In this document: one piece after another, positions 222-23,655 of the stretch
Layout of the letters: each line of letters opens with the position of its first letter
How positions within the stretch are numbered: the first letter of the stretch is position 1
Source of the DNA: Methanocorpusculum sp.
GTDB lineage: Archaea > Halobacteriota > Methanomicrobia > Methanomicrobiales > Methanocorpusculaceae
Assembly: GCA_029987395.1 (NCBI GenBank)
Contig: DALTVX010000035.1
Span: forward strand, 1 to 47,168
Length of the DNA stretch: 47,168 nt
Direction: 5' to 3'
Translations under genes and position numbers: made by a program
Notes under the pieces: model-generated
The model's database searches: none
What the model was told of the DNA's origin: nothing
What the model saw: only the letters and a program-made list of their open reading frames with translations

Positions 222-288
222 TTTCGCTTTTAGAAACTGTTTTTGTATTATACTCCCAATCGGATAATAAAAAAGATAATGGCTGATT

Positions 289-1131
289 TTATTGACGCAT
301 GCTTTTTGCGTTCATCCATCTTACACGGATCTTGAACTCATCTTCAGGAGCCGGTCCGGCTACCAAAGCATCCGAATACATAGAGTATGCCTCGGCAAAG
401 TCTTTTAGTTGTTCAAAGATGATCCCTTTGAAGAACAGTACGAGCGCCCGGTTGTTTGGTCCCGCCAAAAGACAGGCGTCATAATATCTGAGTGCGTCGT
501 AGAGAAGTCCCTCTCCGCGAAGATTGTTTCCCCGCTCGAACAACTCTTCCGCCGTTCCCGAGGGTTTTCGCCAGTTTCCTGATTTGTATACCTTGGCAGC
601 ATAGGGTGGAGCAAAGGCTTTTCCAGCCTCTTTTGCGATATGGACCTTCGAAAGCCAGATCTGGGTCAACATCGTGTCGTCATGCAGAAAACACCACTCC
701 TCAGCACGGTAAAGACTATTTCCGGCCTCTTCATATTTTTTTTGCTGGGCATATGCCTGGGCACGTACTACCAGAGATGCCGCATCTGCTTCGCTAATTT
801 CGTCCGCCTCCTCCACCGTAAGGAGTGCCTCTTCCGGTTTATCCGTATATAATAGAGCCTCGGCTTTGAGAACGAGCAGCATCGAAGTGAATTTTGCAAG
901 CTGTTTCTCATCGATTATCCTGTTATCCCACACTGGTAGATACGTGATGGACTCATTCATGCATTCTGCACACTCCTCATATCGCCCTAATGCCTTGAGG
1001 ATCGATGCCTTTCCGACGTACGTCAGCGGATCAGTTGGATTTTTCTCGATCGCTTCGTCATATTTCTCGATCGCCTCCAGAAACTTACCAGAAAGAGCTA
1101 ACTCCTCTGCATCTTCGATAAGATCAGACAA
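289..1131 (-). CDS. Tetratricopeptide repeat protein
   Basis: Repeated TPR-like helices (G..LEAIEKYDEAIEKNP..Y.GKA.IL.ALGRYEE; GLLYDALRYYDACL..GP); TTG start overlapping cofC stop. Confidence 0.8.
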   Translation of the reverse strand: MSDLIEDAEELALSGKFLEAIEKYDEAIEKNPTDPLTYVGKASILKALGRYEECAECMNESITYLPVWDNRIIDEKQLAKFTSMLLVLKAEALLYTDKPEEALLTVEEADEISEADAASLVVRAQAYAQQKKYEEAGNSLYRAEEWCFLHDDTMLTQIWLSKVHIAKEAGKAFAPPYAAKVYKSGNWRKPSGTAEELFERGNNLRGEGLLYDALRYYDACLLAGPNNRALVLFFKGIIFEQLKDFAEAYSMYSDALVAGPAPEDEFKIRVRWMNAKSMRQ

Positions 1132-1762
1132 TTTCTTTACCGTCCCGGTGGACCTTCACTCGTCCATCCTTTACCGACAAGGTGAATCCATGTTCGTAGA
1201 GCCATTCGCGTGCATTTCCATGACCGTGGATCATCAGCTCGACCAGATCCGCGGGTTCGTCCACGTCCGTCGACATCCGCATGGAGTCGATGATCTCGAC
1301 GGTAAGGTCGAGCTCTTCGGCGATCTGAAGATGCCTCCTGAACGAAAAACCATAATACTCAACACGGAACTTCTCAGGATTCTTGACAAAAATCACATTT
1401 GTTCCGCCGCCAAGTCCCGGTACAATGGCCATATCCGCCTTCGTGGAGATGACTCTCTGGAGACTTCCCGGTGTCACCATCGGCAGATCCGACATGATAA
1501 TCAGAGCTGGGCAGTGGAACTGGGGGAGGGCCCAGTTGATCGCCTCGTTGAGTCCCTCCTTTCGTATCGCAACTAATGCGTTTAGGCATTCATACTTGGA
1601 TGTACAGAGGAGTGTTGCACTGCATCCTGTTCGCTTGACTGCACGGATAACGTCTTCAAGCATTATCCGTGCAAATTCCTCGCGTTCTTCCAAGGTCAAA
1701 ACAGATGAAAGCCGGGTCTTCGGGTTGACCGGTTTGAATGGAATCAGAGCGTGGAAGTACAT
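1124..1762 (-). CDS. cofC: 2-phospho-L-lactate guanylyltransferase (F420 biosynthesis)
   Basis: Motifs IPFKP..PKTRLS, GLNEA, SDLP, GGTN, SF.RH, DVDEPADL. Confidence 0.9.
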   Translation of the reverse strand: MYFHALIPFKPVNPKTRLSSVLTLEEREEFARIMLEDVIRAVKRTGCSATLLCTSKYECLNALVAIRKEGLNEAINWALPQFHCPALIIMSDLPMVTPGSLQRVISTKADMAIVPGLGGGTNVIFVKNPEKFRVEYYGFSFRRHLQIAEELDLTVEIIDSMRMSTDVDEPADLVELMIHGHGNAREWLYEHGFTLSVKDGRVKVHRDGKEIV

Positions 1763-1806
1763 AGTTACTACTATCTGGGGTTTTTCGATAATAGATACTT
1801 TTCTCC

Positions 1807-2610
1807 TTAGCGGTGTATCATCTGGAATACTTTGATGATGTCCATTGAAGGTGCGACATCATGGACCCGCAGAATGTTCGCGCCTCCCTCAAGAAGGGCA
1901 TAGAGAACGCCAAGTGATCCGTACAAGCGTCCATACGGTGGTTTATTCAGACAGTCTCCAATAAACTTCTTGCGGGATGCTGCCGCAAGAAGAGGGTATC
2001 CGTATACCTTTAGTTCGGAAAATCTGCGGCAGAGTTCCCAGTCTGCTTCACTTGATCGTTCTTCGACCCACTTTCCGATACCCGGGTCTAGGATCAGCTG
2101 GTCAATATTATACCGTTCTGCTCTGGTAATGATCTCTTTTAGGGCAGTATGGGTGGAGGCCATCTCGGTTGGATCTCCAGGACGTTTGCGCGCTGACATG
2201 GCAATAACTGGAAGACCGCTGTCCGCTACAATTTCTGCATATCGTTCATTTAATAGTCCACTGACATCGTTCACCGCGGCTATGTCATATCTGAGTGCAG
2301 CTTCAAGGACCTCCGGATACATCGTATCAAGGGAAAGGATTGCCCCTGAGTTACCCAGAGTTCTCAATGCATGAACGACCCGTTCCTTCTCCTCGGCAAC
2401 TGATATTGGTGGTGAGGTAAGGGCCGTGCTACGTGCTCCGATATCAATGATATCGGCACCTTCTCGAAGCATCTCTTCAACACGGGTCGTTATCTGTTCG
2501 TGGGGTGTGAACGAGTCTGAAAAAAAGGACTCGGGGCTGATATTGAGAACTCCCATTACCCTTGGTGGGTGCGCGCCTCCAATGCCGATCCCTTTGATGC
2601 TGACCTCCAT
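1807..2610 (-). CDS. folP: Dihydropteroate synthase
   Basis: VMGVLNISPESF, IDIGARST, LDPGIG, SRKKFIG, LRVHDV. Confidence 0.9.
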   Translation of the reverse strand: MEVSIKGIGIGGAHPPRVMGVLNISPESFFSDSFTPHEQITTRVEEMLREGADIIDIGARSTALTSPPISVAEEKERVVHALRTLGNSGAILSLDTMYPEVLEAALRYDIAAVNDVSGLLNERYAEIVADSGLPVIAMSARKRPGDPTEMASTHTALKEIITRAERYNIDQLILDPGIGKWVEERSSEADWELCRRFSELKVYGYPLLAAASRKKFIGDCLNKPPYGRLYGSLGVLYALLEGGANILRVHDVAPSMDIIKVFQMIHR

Positions 2611-3860
2611 TATAAGTTTCGGATCTCCGGATACAGCGGATATCTCAGACAGAATGCTGTCACTTCAGCTTTGACTTCGGTGATGACTTTCTTATCATCT
2701 ATGTGGTTTAGGACCTTGGCGATCCAGTCGCCTATCTGTTTACACTGCTCCTCTTTCATCCCTCGTGTGGTAATGGTCGGTGTTCCGATCCGAATACCTG
2801 AGGTCTCGAAGGGAGAGAGCGCCTGCCGCGGGATCGTGTTCTTGTTGACAGTGATCCCAGCTTTTCCGAGAGCTATCTCCGCCTCATGACCTGATATGTT
2901 GTGATCGGAAAGATCAAGCAGACAGAGGTGATTGTCGGTTCCACCTGAGACGAGCCGGAAGTTGTTTTCCTCCATGGTCGCGGCGAGCACTTTACAGTTT
3001 TTGACGACCTGTTTTGCATACTCTTTGTAGTCTTCTGTGAGAGCTTCGCGGAAACAGACGGCTTTTGCGGCGATCACGTGCATGAGGGGTCCGCCCTGCA
3101 TACCCGGGAAGACCGCTCTGTCGATAGAGTTTGCATACTCTTTGTTGCACATGATCACTCCGCCGCGTGGTCCTCGAAGGGTCTTATGGGTCGTCGATGT
3201 GGTGTAGGTGGTGACGCCGACCGGCGAATTGTGCAGTCCTGTGCAGCAAAGACCGGATATGTGGGCAATATCGGCCATCGACCGAGCACCTACATCCTCA
3301 GCGATCTCTGCGAATGCCTTGAAGTCTATCTCTCGGGGATAAGCAGACGCTCCGCAGACGAGAAGATCTGGTTTATTTTTTCGTGCGAGCTCCTCGATCA
3401 CACCATAATCAAGAGTTTCTGTGTCGAAGTCTACGCCATAAAAAGAGATATCATAGAATTTTCCCGACATGTTCGCCGGATCGCCATGGGATAGGTGACC
3501 GCCGTCGTTCAGGCTTTGGCTCATGATTTTGTCGCGCGGTTTCAGGCATGAGAGGTATACTGCTTCATTTGCTTGGCTGCCGGAGTGTGGCTGGACGTTT
3601 GCGTGTTGTGCGCCAAAAAGTTTGCAGAGCCTGTCGCGTGCTAGATTTTCGATCTGGTCATGGAACTCGCACCCTCCGTAGTAACGCTTTCCTGGGTAAC
3701 CTTCTGCATATTTATTGGTCAGAATAGTACCCATTGCTTCCATCACTTCACGTGCTACAACATTCTCTGATGCAATAAGTTCAAGCCCCTCAACCTGGCG
3801 CTTGTGTTCTTTGTTGATCAGTTCGAAAATTTCCGGGTCAAATAGTGCCAGGGACGACAT
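2610..3860 (-). CDS. glyA: Serine hydroxymethyltransferase (bacterial-type)
   Basis: [31 protein letters not shown]-lysine motif [13 protein letters not shown]. Confidence 0.97.
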
Positions 3861-3898
3861 ATTGTCTAAATGTTGTTAATGTAACGTGATAAAGGCGT

Positions 3899-5212
3899 CT
3901 ACTCCTTTCCTAGAGCATCGGAGGCGAGCCTTATCATAGAGTACATGCCATCTGGTGTTGGATGAACTTCCAGCATCGGGGAGAACTCATGGACAGTTAC
4001 ACCTTTACGTATCAGATACCCGAGATAGGTACCAACCGTGCTGGTAGAGGGTGCAGATGTAGCAAAACCACAGATCACCCCGTCTTCCTTTGATACCGTG
4101 AGATGCATCGAGCCGACCGATCCGTCCGCTACATGCCAGAACGATTCGGGTCCGGCTATGTTTGGGGAGGAGAAGGTCACACCATCAATGCCTTTTTTCG
4201 ATGGGCATATAGTATAATCCAGACCAAGTACGATCGTGAATGGGATCTGGGATAGATCCACACTGCGCGGCCGTCCAAGAATAGAATCTGCCGCTGCAAA
4301 GCCCTGAAGACGGGCGACCGGAGTGAAGTAAGGTGCTCCGGTCACATCTCCGGCGGCATAGATTCCCGGGATCGATGTCTCCATCTTTTCATCAACTTTG
4401 ATCGAACCATCAGCATTTTTCGACATGCCGGTGAAAAATGAGGTCTCGGCTTTCATGCCGGTCGCAAATAAAACCGCATCAAAGGGAATATCATCCCCGT
4501 TTATTCTGATCCCCTCGACACGATCCTTTCCGAGAATCTGCTCGATATTCCCATATAGGATTGTGACATTCGAAAGATCTCGGTGTACTGCTTTCATCAT
4601 CGCTTCGGGGACAACGGGCAGGAGGATACTTCTACAGATGATGGTCACGTCACATCCAAATGCCGCATAGATATAGGCGAACTCGACCGCAGATATCCCA
4701 CCTCCGATAACCGCTATTCTTTTTGGAAGTTCCGGCATCGTTCGAATTGTCTTAGCCGTGTAAGTTCCGGGCAGATCGTTTCCTGGGATGTCTGGAAAAT
4801 GTATGCCGGAACCTGCGGCGATGATAATGTTCTCTGCTTCGCGAGGGTGATTGTTTACGAACAGTTTTCCATCTCTGATTTCTGCCTCGGTCCCATACTC
4901 TATCACGACCCCTGCTGCTTTTGTTTCCCGTTCGAGAATGATCTCCAGTTTTCGCTGGATCCCTTCGAGTTTCTGGATGACATCAGGATACCTGACGGTC
5001 GCACCGCCATCAACAATCCCGGATTTTTTTAAAAAAGCTAGAGTATTGATGCTGCGGGCAACATCGTTCAACCCGCAGATAAGCATGCACCCGTCATGGA
5101 TGCATGTCCCGCCGATCGCCTTCCTTTCAAGAAGGGTGACCTGCTTTCCTGCTCCGGCAAGGCGAAGTGAAGCCATCCTTCCGGCAGGCCCTCCGCCGAT
5201 AACGTAGATCAT
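3899..5212 (-). CDS. Pyridine nucleotide-disulfide oxidoreductase, dihydrolipoamide dehydrogenase-like
   Basis: GGGPAG FAD motif, redox disulfide GGTCIHDGC, GGGISAVE, YAAGD, C-terminal HPT; ATG at 5212 preferred (right after upstream stop), alternative 5227. Confidence 0.8.
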   Translation of the reverse strand: MIYVIGGGPAGRMASLRLAGAGKQVTLLERKAIGGTCIHDGCMLICGLNDVARSINTLAFLKKSGIVDGGATVRYPDVIQKLEGIQRKLEIILERETKAAGVVIEYGTEAEIRDGKLFVNNHPREAENIIIAAGSGIHFPDIPGNDLPGTYTAKTIRTMPELPKRIAVIGGGISAVEFAYIYAAFGCDVTIICRSILLPVVPEAMMKAVHRDLSNVTILYGNIEQILGKDRVEGIRINGDDIPFDAVLFATGMKAETSFFTGMSKNADGSIKVDEKMETSIPGIYAAGDVTGAPYFTPVARLQGFAAADSILGRPRSVDLSQIPFTIVLGLDYTICPSKKGIDGVTFSSPNIAGPESFWHVADGSVGSMHLTVSKEDGVICGFATSAPSTSTVGTYLGYLIRKGVTVHEFSPMLEVHPTPDGMYSMIRLASDALGKE

Positions 5213-5213
5213 C

Positions 5214-6149
5214 TCAGAACACTTCACAGCCTTCGTCGGATGGAAGGCTCAGTATCTCACCTGAGTATGCGTTCACTTCCACAATGTCCTTTTTTCCTCT
5301 GACCTGCCATATCGGTACATAGACCTTCTTAAACGTCAGTTCAATGTTGTCATCACTTGGACGGAAGTCCTTCTCTTCCGCAAAGATCGCGTCTCCGGCA
5401 GTGGTCTTGATCCTGACCCGGCGGGTGAGCTTCTTTATGAGTTCACTTCTGATCCGTTCTTTTGCTTGATCCAGATTGATGACAACGGTCATTACCTCTG
5501 CATCATGAGGTAGCTCGGCCTCTTGCGGGACGACATCGCCAAACTGTCCTGGAAGATCATTGATCGCATTGATCCAGCCCGATCCCTCATCGTCGAAGGA
5601 GACGCTCTTTCCTTTGTAGGTTGCCTCTCCGCCGCTTTTGAAGTGGTAATACCAGTAAGGGATCATGCGCAGAATGGTTGTTCCCTGCTGGCGGGCAACA
5701 CGGGCAGCATCTTGTCCGGATACTCTGACCGGGAGAACAAGATCATATCCGATCGGCGTTTGTTTGGTACCTATATTTGTATAGGCATAACTGACCGCTC
5801 CCTCAATGTCGAATGGCATGCTCCATATACGTGCGGCAGCCGCATCTCCTATGTTTTTAATGAGCTTCTCCCTTGTCCAGAGATCAGACTCCTTAGGCTG
5901 GAAATAAGAGTTTCCAGTGAAAATAATCTTATCGCAGCGAACTTTTGTTCCGCTGAGATTGATCGTGTAGGGGGTCATGTCGAAGCGCTGAAGGAGATTT
6001 GTGTCGTCGGAACACATGACCAGGATGCATTTCGCACCCCGTACTGCCGAAAGATTGAACGGCGCCTCTTCATTCTCACAGTCATATCCGGCGGTTTCAA
6101 GAACGCGCCGTATCTCGGTCACCGCATGTGTGTGAATCAGTTCACCCAT
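5214..6149 (-). CDS. Hypothetical protein
   Basis: 311-aa ORF in operon orientation filling the gap; no confidently recognised catalytic motif. Confidence 0.7.
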   Translation of the reverse strand: MGELIHTHAVTEIRRVLETAGYDCENEEAPFNLSAVRGAKCILVMCSDDTNLLQRFDMTPYTINLSGTKVRCDKIIFTGNSYFQPKESDLWTREKLIKNIGDAAAARIWSMPFDIEGAVSYAYTNIGTKQTPIGYDLVLPVRVSGQDAARVARQQGTTILRMIPYWYYHFKSGGEATYKGKSVSFDDEGSGWINAINDLPGQFGDVVPQEAELPHDAEVMTVVINLDQAKERIRSELIKKLTRRVRIKTTAGDAIFAEEKDFRPSDDNIELTFKKVYVPIWQVRGKKDIVEVNAYSGEILSLPSDEGCEVF

Positions 6150-17274: not shown

Positions 17275-18036
17275 TTATTTGCTAAGACAGAGGAACAGAT
17301 CCTCGTCGGCAGGAATAGTTTCGATCCTACAGTTCTCGCATTTGATATAGGGGTATCCGCGCACGAGCACGACCGGCACGCCTTCTGAGGACTCGCCCAT
17401 CAGAAGTTCCGCCGTGGAAGCGAGTGAATCGGCTATGGCTCGTCTCGTCACCTGAAGTTTATTCCCGTACAGATCCGGCTTTCCCCGCTCGTCGGTGATT
17501 GGCAGTATCCCTGAACAACCAATCGCCACTCCGGAGACTCCAAGACGCATCGAGTGGGTCCGGGAGTCGATGATGACGACGGCAGCGTCTTTTCCAGTCC
17601 GTTCGCGGATCTGGTCCCGCAGTCGCCGGGCACTTGCCTCCGGATCTACCGGAAGCCGGGTCACCCATCCGTCAGGGGCGTTCGACTCATCTACCCCGGC
17701 GTTGGGGAGAATAAGATCCCATTTCCCGGCGAGAAGATATCCTGGGATGCCGCCGACTATCGTATCGCTCTCATCTAGGATGACCTCAACGAGGCGGGGG
17801 TCCATCTGATACTTCTCCGCGAGGCTGTATGCCTCATCAGACGGGGTGACGTCATCCAGTTTCACGCTGCGTCCTTCGGTCGTAGAGAGTGGGGACTCGG
17901 CGAACAACAGAATATCTCCATCTTCTATTATCTTTGCGTCAGTATCTTCAAGGGAAGATATGACTCGGCTGATAATATCATCGCCGGATACAAGAAGGCC
18001 TGTAGAAACTCCGTATACAGAAAAAAAACCCGACAT
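17275..18036 (-). CDS. cofE: Coenzyme F420-0:L-glutamate ligase family protein (divergent paralog)
   Basis: DPRLVEVIL.ES, NAGVDESN, LPVDP..SA, DLYG..L.VT..AIAD.LAS.A.LLMGE. Confidence 0.85.
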   Translation of the reverse strand: MSGFFSVYGVSTGLLVSGDDIISRVISSLEDTDAKIIEDGDILLFAESPLSTTEGRSVKLDDVTPSDEAYSLAEKYQMDPRLVEVILDESDTIVGGIPGYLLAGKWDLILPNAGVDESNAPDGWVTRLPVDPEASARRLRDQIRERTGKDAAVVIIDSRTHSMRLGVSGVAIGCSGILPITDERGKPDLYGNKLQVTRRAIADSLASTAELLMGESSEGVPVVLVRGYPYIKCENCRIETIPADEDLFLCLSK

Positions 18037-18082
18037 ATGAGATAGATATGTTTTGAGATATTATGAGCTTTCGGATAAAAAA

Positions 18083-18679
18083 TTATTTTGTGGAAAAGAC
18101 CCGGATACTCTTCTCAGCAAAATCCAGGATCTTTTCCGGATCCTGTGCGGCATCGATCAGCAGGAACCGTTCCGGATCTTCGTTCATGCGTGCGATGTAG
18201 CATTTCTGGACCTCTTCGAGATTCTCTACTTTCTCAAAGTGATCCTTTACCTCTCTCCCGGAAAGCCGGCTCACTGCGACTTCCGGCGCCAGCAGAAGGA
18301 GGATCGTCAGGTCAGGGCGGATCGACCAGTCTTTGTGCACGGCAGTCAGCCATGCTTTAGGATCGGGATGAACATTTTTCAGCGAGTTCTGCTGGTAGGC
18401 AAACCTGCTGTCTGAGTACCGGTCGGATATGACCAGTCTTCCCTCCTCCAGCGCCGGGCGGACGACCGTCGCTAGATGAACTGCGTGGTCGGCGACAAAC
18501 AGAGCTGCCTCCACGAGTGGGTCGCCCCTATTATGGATAACTTCACGCACCGCGTCCCCAAGATACGGACTCCCCGGTTCGCGGGTAAACAGGGGGTCGA
18601 GGTCGGAGAGTCTCTCCTGTAGACCTTTAAACAGGGTCGATTTTCCCGACCCGTCGATTCCTTCTAGCGTGATTAGCAA
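18083..18679 (-). CDS. tmk: Thymidylate kinase
   Basis: ITLEGIDGSGKST, TREP, SDRY.DS..AYQ. Confidence 0.95.
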   Translation of the reverse strand: MLITLEGIDGSGKSTLFKGLQERLSDLDPLFTREPGSPYLGDAVREVIHNRGDPLVEAALFVADHAVHLATVVRPALEEGRLVISDRYSDSRFAYQQNSLKNVHPDPKAWLTAVHKDWSIRPDLTILLLLAPEVAVSRLSGREVKDHFEKVENLEEVQKCYIARMNEDPERFLLIDAAQDPEKILDFAEKSIRVFSTK

Positions 18680-19338
18680 AATGTTCCCTCGTGAATGATA
18701 CTGATTGGAATCTTTCCTTTATGGACGGCTGTAGAAATGATCACGCCGTCATATCCTGCATCGCAAAGGATCCGAAGATCCGTTTGTGCGTTCACGCCGC
18801 CTCCGTAGATCAGCGGCTTCTGTGTTGCGGCACGGATCTGCTTTACAAAGTCGAGATCTACTCCTGTTTCGGTACCGACCGAGGAGATGTTAAGGAAAAT
18901 AATACCGTCAAAGGCATAGCTGTCCGCCTCGCGAATCACCTCGATCGGATCACGACCGGAAGGAATCACCTTTCCATCCTTAACATCGACACTGAGGTAT
19001 CCGCCGGAAAATTCCTCGAATGGGGCGTCCGCCGTCTCGGTCCCTACGACGTTCTGGACACCCGGTAGATACTCTTCAGGAATACTGCAGCCCCGATCAA
19101 CCCAGAGCTTCTCAGGGGTCGATTTAAGTCTCAGGATCGTCTCGGTATGATCTCCGCACAGTCCGATCCGGTCAAGATCGGCCACATACGCGTATCTGGG
19201 CTTCATCACAGACATGTATGAATGCGGTTCGGCCGAGGGGGAAAGCCCCCAAGTCAACGGCCGGTACTCTTCCCTATTGCCACTTTTCCCGTGGACGACA
19301 TATCCGTCCATCAGGTCCATTGCTAAAATAACGTTCAT
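18673..19338 (-). CDS. HisA/HisF-related TIM-barrel protein (methanogen-type)
   Basis: DLMDG.VVHGKSG.R..YRP, YVADLD.I, VVGTET, YGGGV. Confidence 0.8.
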   Translation of the reverse strand: MNVILAMDLMDGYVVHGKSGNREEYRPLTWGLSPSAEPHSYMSVMKPRYAYVADLDRIGLCGDHTETILRLKSTPEKLWVDRGCSIPEEYLPGVQNVVGTETADAPFEEFSGGYLSVDVKDGKVIPSGRDPIEVIREADSYAFDGIIFLNISSVGTETGVDLDFVKQIRAATQKPLIYGGGVNAQTDLRILCDAGYDGVIISTAVHKGKIPISIIHEGTFC

Positions 19339-20082
19339 TTATCTTTTCATAACTTTTCTGATCAGATCTTCTTCCTTTGTGAAGTAGAGCGAGTCGTGAC
19401 CTTTCCATGTGCCGCACCCGGAGAACTTCACTGCCGGGATCCCGTTGTTGCTTTCTCCCATAATGAAGTTGGAGAAAGCAGCGATCTCATCCACCACGGC
19501 CTCTTCGGTTATCTTCAGCTCCAGACCAAAGAGATCATGGTCTCCGCGGAAGTCACGAATCGCGGTCATCCCGGCCCAACCGATCGCGTTGCCGCACTGA
19601 CCGCGGCGAAATGCCCTACCGCAGGTGTCGGTAACGATCACGCCCACATCCTTACCAGTGATTTTTTTGATAGCGATCTGGATCTCTCTGCACTCAGCTG
19701 CTGGATCTTTCGGGAGGATGATGATATTTTCCCCTTCTATATTGCTGTTATCCACACCAGCGCGCACACCAACATGGCCACAAGGGACTTCGGAGAGGAT
19801 GAATGGATACTCCATAATGATCTCGGAGGACGAATCCAGGATTCCCTGAATGAATCGCGGATCTTCTTTCGTGAGCCCGGAGATGCGCAATGCGTCTGGA
19901 GATGGCGTGATATCGGCGAGGGCGCGGGTATATCCCTTTGCCTTTGAAACGACTGTTGAGGCGATACAAAGTATATCCCCATCCTGAAATGTGGCATTTT
20001 TGCAGATTATTGCTGGAAGATCATCGCCTTTCTGAATGAGCGGGATCCCTGAAATTCCCGTTACCTGAACTGACATAGACAT
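19339..20082 (-). CDS. cofE: Coenzyme F420-0:L-glutamate ligase
   Basis: IP.I..GDDL, VVSKA.G, AGVD.SN, TDT.GR.FR.GQ, DLFG.EL.IT.EAV.DE.A. Confidence 0.9.
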   Translation of the reverse strand: MSMSVQVTGISGIPLIQKGDDLPAIICKNATFQDGDILCIASTVVSKAKGYTRALADITPSPDALRISGLTKEDPRFIQGILDSSSEIIMEYPFILSEVPCGHVGVRAGVDNSNIEGENIIILPKDPAAECREIQIAIKKITGKDVGVIVTDTCGRAFRRGQCGNAIGWAGMTAIRDFRGDHDLFGLELKITEEAVVDEIAAFSNFIMGESNNGIPAVKFSGCGTWKGHDSLYFTKEEDLIRKVMKR

Positions 20083-20171
20083 TTCATATTTACCTCTCGG
20101 GTAATAAAATCAAGGGTTTAGATACCGGGGGAATCTTTTTGACTCCTTGCGCTAATCATCATTTGATATCT

Positions 20172-20447
20172 ATGAGTACCTACCGGGTTATCCGTTGCCC
20201 CGGGTGTCGTCAGTTCACCTACACCGACTATTATGGAAAGTGGAAACTCTGTCCGGTCTGTGGAGAGGTGATCTCTGTTCGAAATGTTCCGGTGTATCTG
20301 GAGGTTAATGATTTTTCTGAGGCAGAACAGCTCATAAAAGAGGTCCAACGGTATCTGTCCCATACTGGACGGCTCGATCTGGCGAAGGAAGAGGTCGATT
20401 TGATCCGGGAACGGTATCTAGAATGGCTGAATGACCCGGCCGCATGA
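20172..20447 (+). CDS. Small zinc-ribbon protein (DUF1922-like)
   Basis: Y.VIRCPGC...CPVCG plus helical C-terminus; ATG at 20172. Confidence 0.75.
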   Translation: MSTYRVIRCPGCRQFTYTDYYGKWKLCPVCGEVISVRNVPVYLEVNDFSEAEQLIKEVQRYLSHTGRLDLAKEEVDLIRERYLEWLNDPAA

Positions 20448-20686: not shown

Positions 20687-20770
20687 GCGAGGGTTGCCAA
20701 GCCAGGTCAACGGCGCAGGGTTTAGGACCCTGTCTTTAGGAGTTCAAGGGTTCGAATCCCTTCCCTCGCA
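20687..20770 (+). tRNA. tRNA-Leu(TAG)
   Basis: Acceptor GCGAGGG/CCCTCGC; anticodon arm CAGGG-TTTAGGA-CCCTG; long variable arm; GTTCGAATC. Confidence 0.95.
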
Positions 20771-20782: not shown

Positions 20783-20946
20783 CTCTTCAGGTATTTTCTG
20801 TTTATCTGGTTGAACTGGTCAGGGTGCCGGATTCTGTCTTTTGTCCCTCTTCATTTAGCTTCACCTCGATTTTTTGGGGTCGGTGTGACAAATATCCCTA
20901 TCGTCAGGATACGTTTTTTTGCATGAGAAACGCATATATAAGTACT

Positions 20947-21831
20947 ATGAAAACCTTGCAGGAGTATCTTAACGCCTCACATGCCCCTGAAGATCTGGGG
21001 AAAATAATTACACTGATCGCGGATCAGGCTGGGCCAATTCGTTCCGCATTCATCAGTAACCAAAATTATGCGGGTTCCACCAACTCCTCTGGCGAGGATC
21101 AGGCAGAAATGGACACATGGGCCGACGCCCATATCACCTCTGTTCTTCAGAAGAGCAGGCTTGTCCGCGCCCTAGCCTCCGAGGAGCAGGAGGATATCGT
21201 GCAGATGTCCCCTTCCGCGAAGTATTCGGTCGTGATGGATCCTCTTGACGGCTCATCGCTGATCAAGGTGAACCTGAGCGTCGGAACGATTGTCGGGATC
21301 TATGAAGGCGATGTTCTTCAGGCGGGAAACCAGCTTCGTGCCGCGTTCTATATGCTTTACGGTCCGATGACCACACTGACTATCTCTCTAGGGAACGGTG
21401 TCTCGACCTTTGCGCTGAATGCAGAAGGGATCTATGTCCTCTTAAAAGAGAATATTCGGATCCCGGAAGGAACTCTTTGCGGGAGCGGAGGTCTGCGACC
21501 TGAGTGGATCCCAAAACATCTTCAGTATATGAATGAGATCGAGTGCGATGGTGGGAAGAACCGGTACTCTGGCTCCTTTGTTGCCGACTTCCACCAGATC
21601 TTGGAGTATGGGGGGGTGTATGCCTATCCAGCCACAATAAAATCGGCTTCCGGAAAGCTGCGGCTGGTCTTTGAGATCAACCCGATAGGGTTCCTCGCGG
21701 TTCAGGCTGGAGGCGCGGTTTCGAATGGTGAATCCTCGACCTTGGATATCGTGCCAAAAAAGGTTCATCAGAGAACGCCGGTGTATGTCGGTAGTAAAGG
21801 AATGATCGCCAAGATCGAGGCGATCCGCTGA
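20947..21831 (+). CDS. fbp: Class I fructose-1,6-bisphosphatase
   Basis: N.SGE.Q..D, ASEE, DPLDGSS, SVGTI, RYSGS.VAD.H, GKLRL.FE.NP, HQRTP. Confidence 0.93.
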   Translation: MKTLQEYLNASHAPEDLGKIITLIADQAGPIRSAFISNQNYAGSTNSSGEDQAEMDTWADAHITSVLQKSRLVRALASEEQEDIVQMSPSAKYSVVMDPLDGSSLIKVNLSVGTIVGIYEGDVLQAGNQLRAAFYMLYGPMTTLTISLGNGVSTFALNAEGIYVLLKENIRIPEGTLCGSGGLRPEWIPKHLQYMNEIECDGGKNRYSGSFVADFHQILEYGGVYAYPATIKSASGKLRLVFEINPIGFLAVQAGGAVSNGESSTLDIVPKKVHQRTPVYVGSKGMIAKIEAIR

Positions 21832-21833
21832 GT

Positions 21834-22493
21834 ATGAGGACAACGATTTCGGTCTATGCAAAATCAGTTGGCGGCGTCTGTGAGACCACTCGGGTCTTTC
21901 CAGATATCCTTCAGATGGCGGCAAAGATGCTCAAAAAGGAGGAAGGTGGGGCTTTTATCGATTCCTTTGTTACCCACACGGCCGATCGTTTGGTCCTCAT
22001 GATTACGCATGATCCAGATTATCTGCCTGATGATTTCATTGGAGAGGCCTTTTTAACGGCTCAGGAGATGTCTGAGAAACGTCATCTTTTCTGTGGTGCC
22101 GATCCTGTTTCACTCTGCCGTATCACGATCGAAGAGCGAGAGAACGAGCCGCTCATTTTGTTTATGGCAGGGTCGGATATGGTTCCGTGGGGTGAGGTGA
22201 TGCTCCCAAATCAGAATACTGTCTCGAACGGAGTCTTGTTCCTCACTCGTGCCGGAGGGGATTTTCCGTCCACGTCTGAGTTTTGTGAACGATTCGCGCG
22301 CCGCGGTCTAAATCAGCAGGGGATCAGCCCGTTAAGCCTCTGTGATTCATTGAATGTCAGATCAACGGTCATACCTGTTGTCGGACTCGGCTTTTCGCTC
22401 TGTAACGGAAAGCTAACCGGGCCGGTGGACCTCTTTGATACGCCGCTGTTTGACGCCCCGAGGTTTTGGGCTTCAGACCGGCATGTTGAGTAA
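21834..22493 (+). CDS. Degenerate, internally deleted FBP aldolase/phosphatase (class V FBPase) homolog
   Basis: TTISV, TH..D.L.L..TH, IEER..EP...FMA and GLGF...NGKL.GP.DLFD.P.FD match the family; catalytic residues absent. Confidence 0.75.
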   Translation: MRTTISVYAKSVGGVCETTRVFPDILQMAAKMLKKEEGGAFIDSFVTHTADRLVLMITHDPDYLPDDFIGEAFLTAQEMSEKRHLFCGADPVSLCRITIEERENEPLILFMAGSDMVPWGEVMLPNQNTVSNGVLFLTRAGGDFPSTSEFCERFARRGLNQQGISPLSLCDSLNVRSTVIPVVGLGFSLCNGKLTGPVDLFDTPLFDAPRFWASDRHVE

Positions 22494-22605
22494 GGGGACG
22501 AATAGACCCTATTTCCTCTCTCTTTTTTCGTATCTTTTTTAGTGGATATGTCTCGTGATTGCAATATCCTGTTTTTTCTCTTGGCACCGCTAATCATATA
22601 TCAGA

Positions 22606-23655
22606 ATGGCAAAACGCGGCCTGGAAAAATATGTGACCTATCCCTTGATTGTTCCGACGGAACAGTCTGGAACAATTCAGGTAAACATCGCGTTTCCGTA
22701 TCGTCATCTAAACTATTCTTTTACAATAGATGTACCCCTGTCCCTTTATGAGGGTGCGAGGCTTTCGGGAAAGTCTGCCCGGGTCCCTGCCGGGATCCAG
22801 GACGCCTGGCTAGCCGGTTATTACAAAGCTTTTGCGCTCGACTCTTCTCAATCAAAGGTGTATCAGACGCTTTTATCACAGTTTCGCAAAATAAGTAACG
22901 AGTATAACCTTAATGGTGATGAATATCTGGAGCTTTTGACTGCATATGTCCAGTCGCTCCCGTATGACACGAAAAAACTATCTTCGATAGAAATAGCTCC
23001 CCGTTTTCCGGTCGAAACGATCGTTGATGGGACCGGGATATGCAGTGATAAATCACTTCTCCTTGCAGGCCTCCTCTCTCACGAGGGCTATGCGATATCA
23101 ATTCTTCAGTTTGGAAAGGAAAATCATCTGACTGTCGGGCTTCCCGCTCCTGATGGTTATGATTTTGCCGGATGTGGTCAGTCAGTTGTTGAAACTACTG
23201 CTATATCGTATATTGGTCATCCCGCTGGAGAATATGCTGATACAACATCCAGACCTAAGGTATTCCCCATTGGTCATGGGACAAAACGATATGGCTGCAT
23301 TCGTGAGGTTGCTAAAATTCGTGCCACTCTCACCTCGCTCAACGAAAAATTATCCGAGGATGGGACACTTACCTGTGAGATCGTTCGTCTTCATGAGAAA
23401 CTTCTCCTGCTAAAAGAGGAATTGGCCGAGTCTCGGGATGCTCTCCCAGTCCTACTTGCCGAGGGCAAAACCGTTGAGCGTGAAAATCTTCGTTGTATCC
23501 ATAACAAAAACGTCGAGCGTTTAAAAAAGATGCTTGAATCATACAACAAACTCGTCGAGGAGTATCAGAAGCTTGCCGGACTCGCTGAGTTCATCCAGCA
23601 CAACCGACTAGATCGTCCGGCAGTCTCCCTAAAACTCAACGCATTGGATGAATAG
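22606..23655 (+). CDS. Transglutaminase-like protein with C-terminal coiled coil
   Basis: [34 protein letters not shown]. Confidence 0.65.

Follow-up and report, generated by a model that had tools for sequence, protein, structure and literature searches.

What becomes of an enzyme gene when its neighbor takes over the reaction, and what could keep it intact once its active site is gone? The question is raised by a 47,168-nt stretch of DNA from Methanocorpusculum sp., a methanogen of guts and wastewater (contig DALTVX010000035.1 of assembly GCA_029987395.1; "the window" means this whole stretch), in which a class I fructose-1,6-bisphosphatase (FBPase) gene, fbp, is followed by an open reading frame (ORF) of 219 aa. 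An earlier reading of the letters alone, here called the original prediction, took this ORF for a catalytically stripped archaeal aldolase/phosphatase (FBPA/P) of fructose-1,6-bisphosphate (FBP), replaced in place by the FBPase, which it called bacterial-type, and kept possibly as a regulatory or scaffold partner. Our analysis makes it very probable that the 219-aa protein, hereafter the remnant, has this identity and history, namely that of a displaced and catalytically dead FBPA/P.

Results

Homology and lost motifs

The remnant matches Pfam family PF01950 (E 4e-18, 66.2 bits, cut-off 25) over two separate parts of the 361-position profile (1-89 and 236-323), while its score of 66.4 bits against the NCBIfam equivalog NF041126 fails the cut-off of 520. 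A phmmer search of the PDB matches it to 3R1M at E 4e-15, the solved enzymes ST0318 and TnFBPAP both being matched by sequence, and a profile built from 28 reduced forms reaches 3R1M at E 1e-34. Losses were scored in an alignment of 36 rows (A1: the window remnant with 19 other short and 5 intermediate forms, 3 reduced forms from another family, and 8 canonical enzymes) and in a motif table covering 87 family members. All 13 canonical relatives from Methanomicrobiales, with lengths of 365-370 aa as the original prediction had roughly expected, carry all eight motifs: KADxGS, PGHS, GDD, AGQD, MADK, YVGKDD, GSHHGP, and EMEYTT. At the same positions the remnant has AKSVGG, CETT, ADR, a deletion, MAGS, two further deletions, and a truncation. 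It is thus without seven of the eight catalytic motifs, the sole retained piece being one Asp (D51) of GDD, and every motif loss named from the sequence beforehand is seen in both A1 and the motif table. We take KADxGS, PGHS, GDD, AGQD, MADK, and GSHHGP to be the metal- and substrate-binding motifs of FBPA/P, the Asp of KADxGS (lost together with the Lys) to be the first metal ligand, and YVGKDD to be the loop that bears the Schiff-base lysine.

Further losses comprise the AGQDLLS..GN loop, most of WMRGSHHGP, and a middle domain of ~75 aa. The remnant also terminates ~40 residues short of the canonical EMEYTT position, and the C-terminal lid is absent. The YVGKDD loop is deleted in 28/28 reduced forms and present in 13/13 canonical relatives; all 20 short forms have gaps throughout columns 150-235 of A1, and the congener forms of 279-281 aa retain the middle domain and have no YVGKDD loop. 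What has been kept is equally consistent: G196, P197, D199, and D202 are invariant in 36/36 A1 rows, the block around them is kept in every degenerate lineage, and D43, H48, D51, E101, R139, D171, D199, and D202 are kept in all or nearly all 36 rows. The position of Tyr347 of ST0318, which is required for both activities according to the CinF report (PMC8740755), falls in the missing C-terminus.

The remnant is therefore a pseudoenzyme, a folded FBPA/P core stripped of its catalytic loops, middle domain, and C-terminal lid, and the public name "fructose 1,6-bisphosphatase" is almost certainly wrong for it. No second PF01950 match was found in the window's own genome (83% complete), and no intact FBPA/P in that genome or in 43 congeners, which answers the earlier call for such a search. 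One protein of the Methanocorpusculum-type short form (P0002, 291 aa, on a JGI contig of 1780 nt) has an internal tandem duplication of ~70 residues; it is probably the product of misassembly or else an uncommon variant.

Predicted fold

An AlphaFold2 model of the remnant, built on a 36-row alignment, has a mean predicted local distance difference test score (pLDDT) of 90.2 and a predicted template modelling score (pTM) of 0.89. Foldseek ranks all seven solved FBPA/P entries at the top (E 4e-14 to 1e-11), with template modelling (TM) scores of 0.78-0.83 when normalised to the query and 0.45-0.52 when normalised to the target. VIA-align superposes the model on the same seven entries with Z 24.2-25.0 and a root-mean-square deviation (rmsd) of 1.8-2.0 A over 216-219 of its 219 residues, the match to 1UMG having Z 25.0 and rmsd 1.8 A over 216 residues. 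The next match drops to Z 9.2 and concerns a generic ferredoxin-like fold over residues 1-100; this half forms a ferredoxin-like beta-alpha-beta-beta-alpha-beta unit, to which ferredoxin-fold proteins match at Z 8-9. ACT-type regulatory domains match only weakly (Foldseek E ~1e-3, TM 0.2-0.36) and serve as a lead only. Profile and structure comparisons thus agree with the homology proposed from motifs. On the model, the remnant is the bare FBPA/P core fold without catalytic appendages, and the 219-aa form would define the minimal stable core of that fold.

Conservation and selection

An intact ortholog stands behind fbp in 24/24 Methanocorpusculum genomes searched, and a larger draw from the genus yielded an intact ortholog in 43/44. 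Of the 24 congener orthologs, 19 are 212-223 aa long and 5 are 279-280 aa long, and identity to the window remnant drops to 40-41%. No frameshift or stop occurs in 25 aligned Methanocorpusculum remnant genes. The ratio of non-synonymous to synonymous substitution (dN/dS) was estimated by the Nei-Gojobori method (NG86) for the 43 of 300 pairs in which dS was below 1.5 in both genes; it is 0.058-0.283 (median 0.15) for the remnant and 0.010-0.109 (median 0.06) for fbp in the same pairs. Canonical FBPA/P gives 0.125 (57 pairs), and degenerate forms elsewhere give 0.13 in the sister genus g13 (5 pairs) and 0.22 in g26 (1 pair). Values for fbp in genera g3 and g38 were discarded, being inflated by ORFs with spurious N-terminal extensions.

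Because orthologs are intact throughout the genus while identity falls to 40% and dN/dS stays at 0.15, the Methanocorpusculum remnant is, to judge from these comparisons, kept by purifying selection and no pseudogene. The original prediction had allowed for simple decay, with frameshifts and dN/dS near 1, and had preferred a gene kept frameshift-free; the latter is what was found. Constraint in Methanocorpusculaceae is as strong as that on the working enzyme. Nineteen wastewater, manure, and other metagenomes contain this DNA.

Distribution and gene order in Methanomicrobiales

Families, genera, genomes, loci, and proteins are given by our own handles (f, g, G, L, and P with a number). PF01950 was scanned in 301 Methanomicrobiales genomes and class I fbp in 121, nearly all of the latter at least 90% complete. 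Canonical PF01950 matches (E ~1e-180) characterise families f2, f5, and most of f6; weak or degenerate ones occur in f1 (g1, 43/44; g13, 9/9), f3 (g3, 12/12), g26 (2/2), and part of g38; and f4 mostly has no match at all (4/39 with one). Class I fbp was found in 26/26 genomes of f1, 10/10 of f3, 21/22 of f4, and 14/27 of f6. Genera that have only degenerate forms carry it in 18/18, 8/8, 10/10, and 1/1 genomes, whereas the families that have only the canonical enzyme carry it in 0/8 (f2) and 0/27 (f5). A degenerate or absent FBPA/P was thus seen only where class I fbp is present, and lineages without fbp keep the canonical form. Across the order the protein forms a size series: canonical with 365 aa, full-length but dead, and then 300, 280, 260, and 219 aa.

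Gene order follows the same division. Synteny across relatives, which the original prediction had proposed to examine, shows that, in 25/25 loci of Methanocorpusculum and 3/3 of g3, fbp stands immediately upstream of the degenerate gene, as it does in all 18 complete degenerate loci from 21 genomes chosen for weak E-values (two of the others are contig-end fragments, and in G195 a single gene intervenes). Among 43 degenerate loci whose start codon was verified, 41 have -4 to +9 nt between the end of fbp and the beginning of its partner; between fbp and canonical FBPA/P in two g38 genomes the distance is +115 and +127 nt. In G256 and G197 (g38), PFK and then a DhnA-type aldolase gene precede class I fbp, which is of the same type as the window's and is followed by canonical FBPA/P; in g12 and g9, fbp comes first, then a class II aldolase gene and canonical FBPA/P. 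Examples of such sugar-phosphate clusters are L074 (G256, 242-4101) and L033 (G039, 1031-4264), the latter with class I fbp, class II aldolase, and canonical FBPA/P.

Since a degenerate or missing FBPA/P occurs only with class I fbp, and since a canonical FBPA/P stands behind the same type of fbp in two g38 genomes, replacement of FBPA/P by the neighboring class I FBPase is well supported by comparative sequence evidence. The replacement in place proposed at the outset fits both the distribution and the g38 gene order.

Some relatives add observations of their own. In a rare f4 genome (G050, g16; L097, C11:448209-450044), class I fbp is immediately followed by an FBPA/P-like gene of roughly full length. 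The reduced-form profile matches this gene at E 8e-49, compared with ~1e-28 for canonical enzymes, and it may be a transitional form. In two g3 genomes (G026, L038, C1:351478-352263; G031, L040, C1:864478-865266) the profile match continues past the in-frame TGA that ends the 260-aa ORF, which suggests a recent further C-terminal truncation or read-through. At loci from which FBPA/P is gone (L080-L083, L085, L086, and L087, in f4 and G100), an ORF of ~115 aa follows fbp or the aldolase; its N-terminus is conserved as ...PEGVLQSELWKLL.IDSRKCSR..KKL, and the product looks like a winged-helix regulator.

The upstream class I FBPase

The fbp product passes both class I domain models, PF00316 with 121.9 bits (cut-off 34.8) and PF18913 with 116.2 bits (cut-off 27), so the original assignment of this gene holds. 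Its best NCBIfam match, NF006786 "class 1 fructose-bisphosphatase", reaches 246 bits and stays below the cut-off of 428, and all nine NCBIfam class-1 FBPase models score it below their cut-offs. By sequence it is a divergent archaeal class I subfamily, and the fbp tree holds two deeply separate class I lineages within Methanomicrobiales. Identity is 68-93% across 24 congeners. The columns of DPLDGSS and GKLRL..E.NP, which we take to be catalytic motifs, are invariant in the fbp alignment (A3), and the product is likely the working FBPase of the genome. A DhnA-type aldolase (NF005321, 521.7 bits, cut-off 420) and ADH synthase are also encoded in the window's genome, and no class II aldolase was found in it (83% complete).

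Stages and origins

The Lys, His, and Tyr positions are lost in three full-length proteins (360-364 aa), those of G195 and G238 and the metagenomic P0045; trees place these proteins inside the canonical clade, and they therefore look like recent, separate inactivations. Quick trees set the strongly degenerate forms (g1, g13, g26, g3, and part of g38) on one side of a branch with support of 72 (87 rows) and 98 (55 rows). A careful free tree does not unite them in one clade, the approximately unbiased (AU) test does not reject one clade (p 0.84), and long-branch warnings apply to all trees of the remnant family. In the fbp tree, degenerate-linked and canonical-linked fbp genes of g38 fall in one clade with support of 100, which argues for separate in-place decay in g38.

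When the reduced-form profile was run on 301 genomes sampled across the phylum (175 matched), all matches outside Methanomicrobiales, among those listed, lay in frames of 359-543 aa. Run on 1.84 billion representatives, the profile gave 193 matches, other reduced forms among them. Short, motif-poor FBPA/P homologues include P0091 of Thermodesulfobium narugense (282 aa, publicly named fructose 1,6-bisphosphatase), P0064 and P0093 (249-250 aa), and P0078 (266 aa), from bacteria and unplaced metagenomic contigs. The degenerate homologues at five Actinomycetes loci (L118-L121 and L176, ~4000-5900) form a lineage of their own, some of them keeping GDD and DK but having no Schiff-base loop; PNP/MTAP-like and BacA genes stand upstream.

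Layout of the locus

The features of the locus are collected in Table 1, where the intact 219-aa ORF described at the outset is confirmed by the ORF list and the sequence.

Table 1. Features of the fbp-remnant locus (window coordinates; A1 is the 36-row alignment).
Feature	Position	Strand	Basis or remark
tRNA-Leu (anticodon TAG)	20687..20770	+	ARAGORN; upstream boundary of the two-gene unit, context only
Class I fructose-1,6-bisphosphatase gene (fbp), 294 aa, apparently intact	20947..21831	+	Stop TGA 21829-21831
2-nt spacer, fbp stop to remnant ATG	21832..21833	+	Sequence
Remnant gene, 219-aa catalytically stripped FBPA/P core	21834..22493	+	ATG at 21834; stop TAA 22491-22493
Remnant residues 9-14, AKSVGG (canonical KADxGS)	21858..21875	+	A1 and motif table
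Remnant residues 47-52, THTADR (canonical TH.GDD); one Asp kept, second changed to Arg	21972..21989	+	A1 and motif table
Remnant residues 110-115, FMAGSD (canonical FMADKT); Asp-Lys pair lost	22161..22178	+	A1 and motif table
Remnant residues ~128-133, junction where the ~75-aa middle domain and the TSTQRL..YVGKDD loop are absent	22215..22232	+	A1
Remnant residues 196-210, GPVDLFDTPLFDAPR, most conserved block, common with canonical (GP.DMFDDP.FD..R)	22419..22463	+	A1
T-rich tract with two runs of 6 T, 3' of the remnant stop	22510..22541	+	Sequence

In the ORF list the fbp frame spans 20824..21831, and the ATG at 20947 is the start common to orthologs. The short spacing between the two genes suggests translational coupling. 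Oligo-T stretches act as archaeal terminators, and the T-rich tract is a likely terminator closing a bicistronic unit. A scan of the locus with promoter and terminator models gave no signal above shuffles, the models being bacterial and not applicable to archaea. The gene 3' of the remnant is not conserved among congeners, which leaves fbp and the remnant gene as the conserved unit; no other pair is conserved as a unit in the congener loci.

On the minus strand, 17275-20082 holds one row of genes in which two CofE paralogues (F420-0:gamma-glutamyl ligase, PF01996; 253 and 247 aa) flank a thymidylate kinase gene and a HisA/HisF-like (PF00977) gene. A 102-aa zinc-ribbon ORF (20139-20447, +) matches DUF1922 at 29.1 bits, below the cut-off of 30, and stands beside fbp in only a few congeners. 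Downstream, a 349-aa ORF (22606-23655, +) has a weak transglutaminase-like (DUF553) match and a coiled-coil-like C-terminus, and was not found in congener loci.

Discussion

The comparative evidence can be arranged into a very probable history. A class I FBPase gene would have come to adjoin the FBPA/P gene in Methanomicrobiales, and the FBPase, together with a separate DhnA-type aldolase, would have taken over FBP hydrolysis and synthesis. Freed from catalysis, the FBPA/P gene would then have lost its active site and shrunk, while in Methanocorpusculaceae it would have stayed under purifying selection. The setting in which Methanocorpusculum occurs is mesophilic (wastewater and manure metagenomes). 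In a proposal by Say and Fuchs (2010; cited in PMC12965863), the main task of FBPA/P is to clear triose phosphates, which are heat-labile, and a takeover by class I FBPase fits this idea.

What the remnant does now is a separate matter. Its adjacency and spacing make it possible, in our tentative view, that it is a non-catalytic partner of the class I FBPase. The two proteins would be made from one bicistronic, translationally coupled message, and the remnant would act on or with the FBPase as a stabilising, assembling, or regulatory subunit. We favor such a role because the coupling tightened as catalysis was lost, because no other unit is conserved, and because constraint is strong in Methanocorpusculaceae. 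In a broader and more doubtful version, Methanocorpusculaceae and several further lineages of Methanomicrobiales would have hetero-oligomeric class I FBPases, whose second subunit is the dead core of the displaced enzyme; in at least two to three lineages that enzyme would have been turned into a regulator or assembly factor of its successor. Several observations weigh against partnership. The adjacency is inherited from an ancestral fbp-FBPA/P order, and as such is no independent evidence. Six f4 loci and G100 have nothing FBPA/P-like 3' of fbp (hidden Markov model E>0.01) although the f4 fbp belongs to the same clade, so the FBPase of those lineages works without a remnant. At five loci in Actinomycetes metagenome-assembled genomes, degenerate FBPA/P genes of 309-324 aa have no class I fbp within 4 kb, and in at least three of the five a sugar nucleotidyltransferase gene (PF00483) follows; dead FBPA/P cores can thus persist for reasons unrelated to FBPase. 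Constraint is weaker in g3 (dN/dS 0.37, 15 pairs) and in the degenerate g38 group (0.40, 6 pairs). Support for transcription consists of one 154-nt contig from one RNA-library run (22018-22171, 0 differences, depth 4), for which DNA carry-over is possible; the same run gave no contig on fbp, and two other RNA runs gave neither gene. A prediction of the 1:1 complex between the FBPase (A3) and the remnant (A2), made without controls, gave a score of 0.00 where the mark is 0.32, and counts neither for nor against binding.

In view of the f4 losses and of the cases from Actinomycetes, a function independent of FBPase is a serious rival, which we nevertheless rate as somewhat unlikely. The remnant could be a sugar-phosphate binding or sensing module or a homo-oligomeric scaffold, and its position a leftover that also secures co-expression with gluconeogenesis. 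Purifying selection on a compact, confidently predicted fold would be expected of such a module, and the ferredoxin-like N-terminal half, with its weak likeness to ACT domains, gives a lead in this direction. However, the segments that contact substrate (MADK, YVGKDD, RGSHHGP, and the C-terminal Tyr) are deleted or replaced, which leaves no obvious ligand site, and a mere leftover would not predict that degenerate lineages shortened the spacing to fbp from above 100 nt to only a few. Partnership with the FBPase accommodates this last trend and remains our preferred reading. Decay into a functionless relic, close to loss and with a reading frame preserved only by its shortness and by translation following on from that of fbp, is very improbable for Methanocorpusculum. 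Complete loss in f4 and G100, the ever shorter forms, which resemble progressive decay, the relaxed constraint in g3 and degenerate g38, and the homology beyond the in-frame TGA in two g3 genomes are what such a relic would leave; but dN/dS stays at 0.15, a value similar to the canonical one, in a genus with over 40 species and saturated dS, the 25 aligned genes are free of frameshifts and stops, and the predicted fold is well packed, all of which speaks against it.

It is improbable as well that enzymatic activity persists in the remnant, whether residual or newly gained, such as phosphatase action on another substrate. The acidic and polar residues retained in A1 (D43 to D202, listed above) could be read in its favor, but they are likewise conserved in canonical enzymes and look structural, and the remnant has lost seven of the eight catalytic motifs, both mobile loops, and the lid, as the low equivalog score also reflects. 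A precedent does exist in CinF (Cbu0513) of Coxiella burnetii, which belongs to the same fold family, has lost activity on FBP, and dephosphorylates a protein (PMC8740755). CinF thus shows that this family can be put to another use. It is, however, a full-length protein of 382 aa, ~39% identical to ST0318, still catalytic and dependent on its lid Tyr, whereas the catalytic apparatus of the remnant is lost; the two are compared here by published description.

Set beside the canonical enzyme (PF01950, NF041126; 1UMG and 3R1M, S. tokodaii ST0318; 3T2B-G, T. neutrophilus), the remnant shares homology, the core fold, and the GP.DLFD.P.FD..R block, VRA, W119, and TH motifs. Canonical FBPA/P has 360-385 aa, compared with 219 aa, and the remnant is without the middle domain, the Schiff-base loop and its Lys, the Gln loop, the SHH segment, and the lid with its essential Tyr, one metal-ligand Asp being left. 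It would accordingly be unable to work as the canonical enzyme does. Dead partners that are encoded together with an active enzyme are familiar elsewhere: GatZ/KbaZ accompany the tagatose-bisphosphate aldolases GatY/KbaY, HisZ accompanies the short HisG, and binding has been demonstrated. By analogy, the remnant would resemble them as an inactive member of a metabolic enzyme family that selection keeps and that is encoded together with a working enzyme from its pathway. They differ in that GatZ/KbaZ and HisZ are paralogues of the assisted enzyme or of a tRNA synthetase, whereas the remnant is unrelated in fold to class I FBPase and is linked to it by gene adjacency and spacing.

The literature searched, supplements lying outside the search, describes no truncated or inactive FBPA/P homologue other than CinF. 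CinF is accordingly the only reported re-use of the FBPA/P fold, as a full-length catalytic effector, and the remnant, a pseudoenzyme derived from a class V FBPase, is new among the literature found. ESM Atlas attaches the label PF27658 (Pfam 38.1, "Uncharacterised conserved protein UCP005278") to 28% of the remnant's cluster and to 81% of a neighboring archaeal cluster of 244 aa. It is thus probable that short FBPA/P-like proteins of this kind have already been separated by curators into a family, with no function attached, a reading taken from cluster labels; no mention of PF27658 was found in the literature searched.

Public records name these proteins "fructose 1,6-bisphosphatase" or "FBP aldolase/phosphatase". 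As a consequence, metabolic reconstructions of Methanocorpusculum and of other lineages with degenerate forms credit them with an enzyme that they almost certainly lack. The Methanomicrobiales offer an unusually complete series of non-orthologous displacement, in which the canonical enzyme stands alone, is accompanied by its replacement, is full-length and dead, is miniaturised, or is gone, and this series lets one ask what decides between the loss and the re-use of a displaced enzyme. If it is true that the remnant binds the class I FBPase, it would represent a new kind of FBPase regulation in archaea, in which the control of gluconeogenesis is poorly understood.

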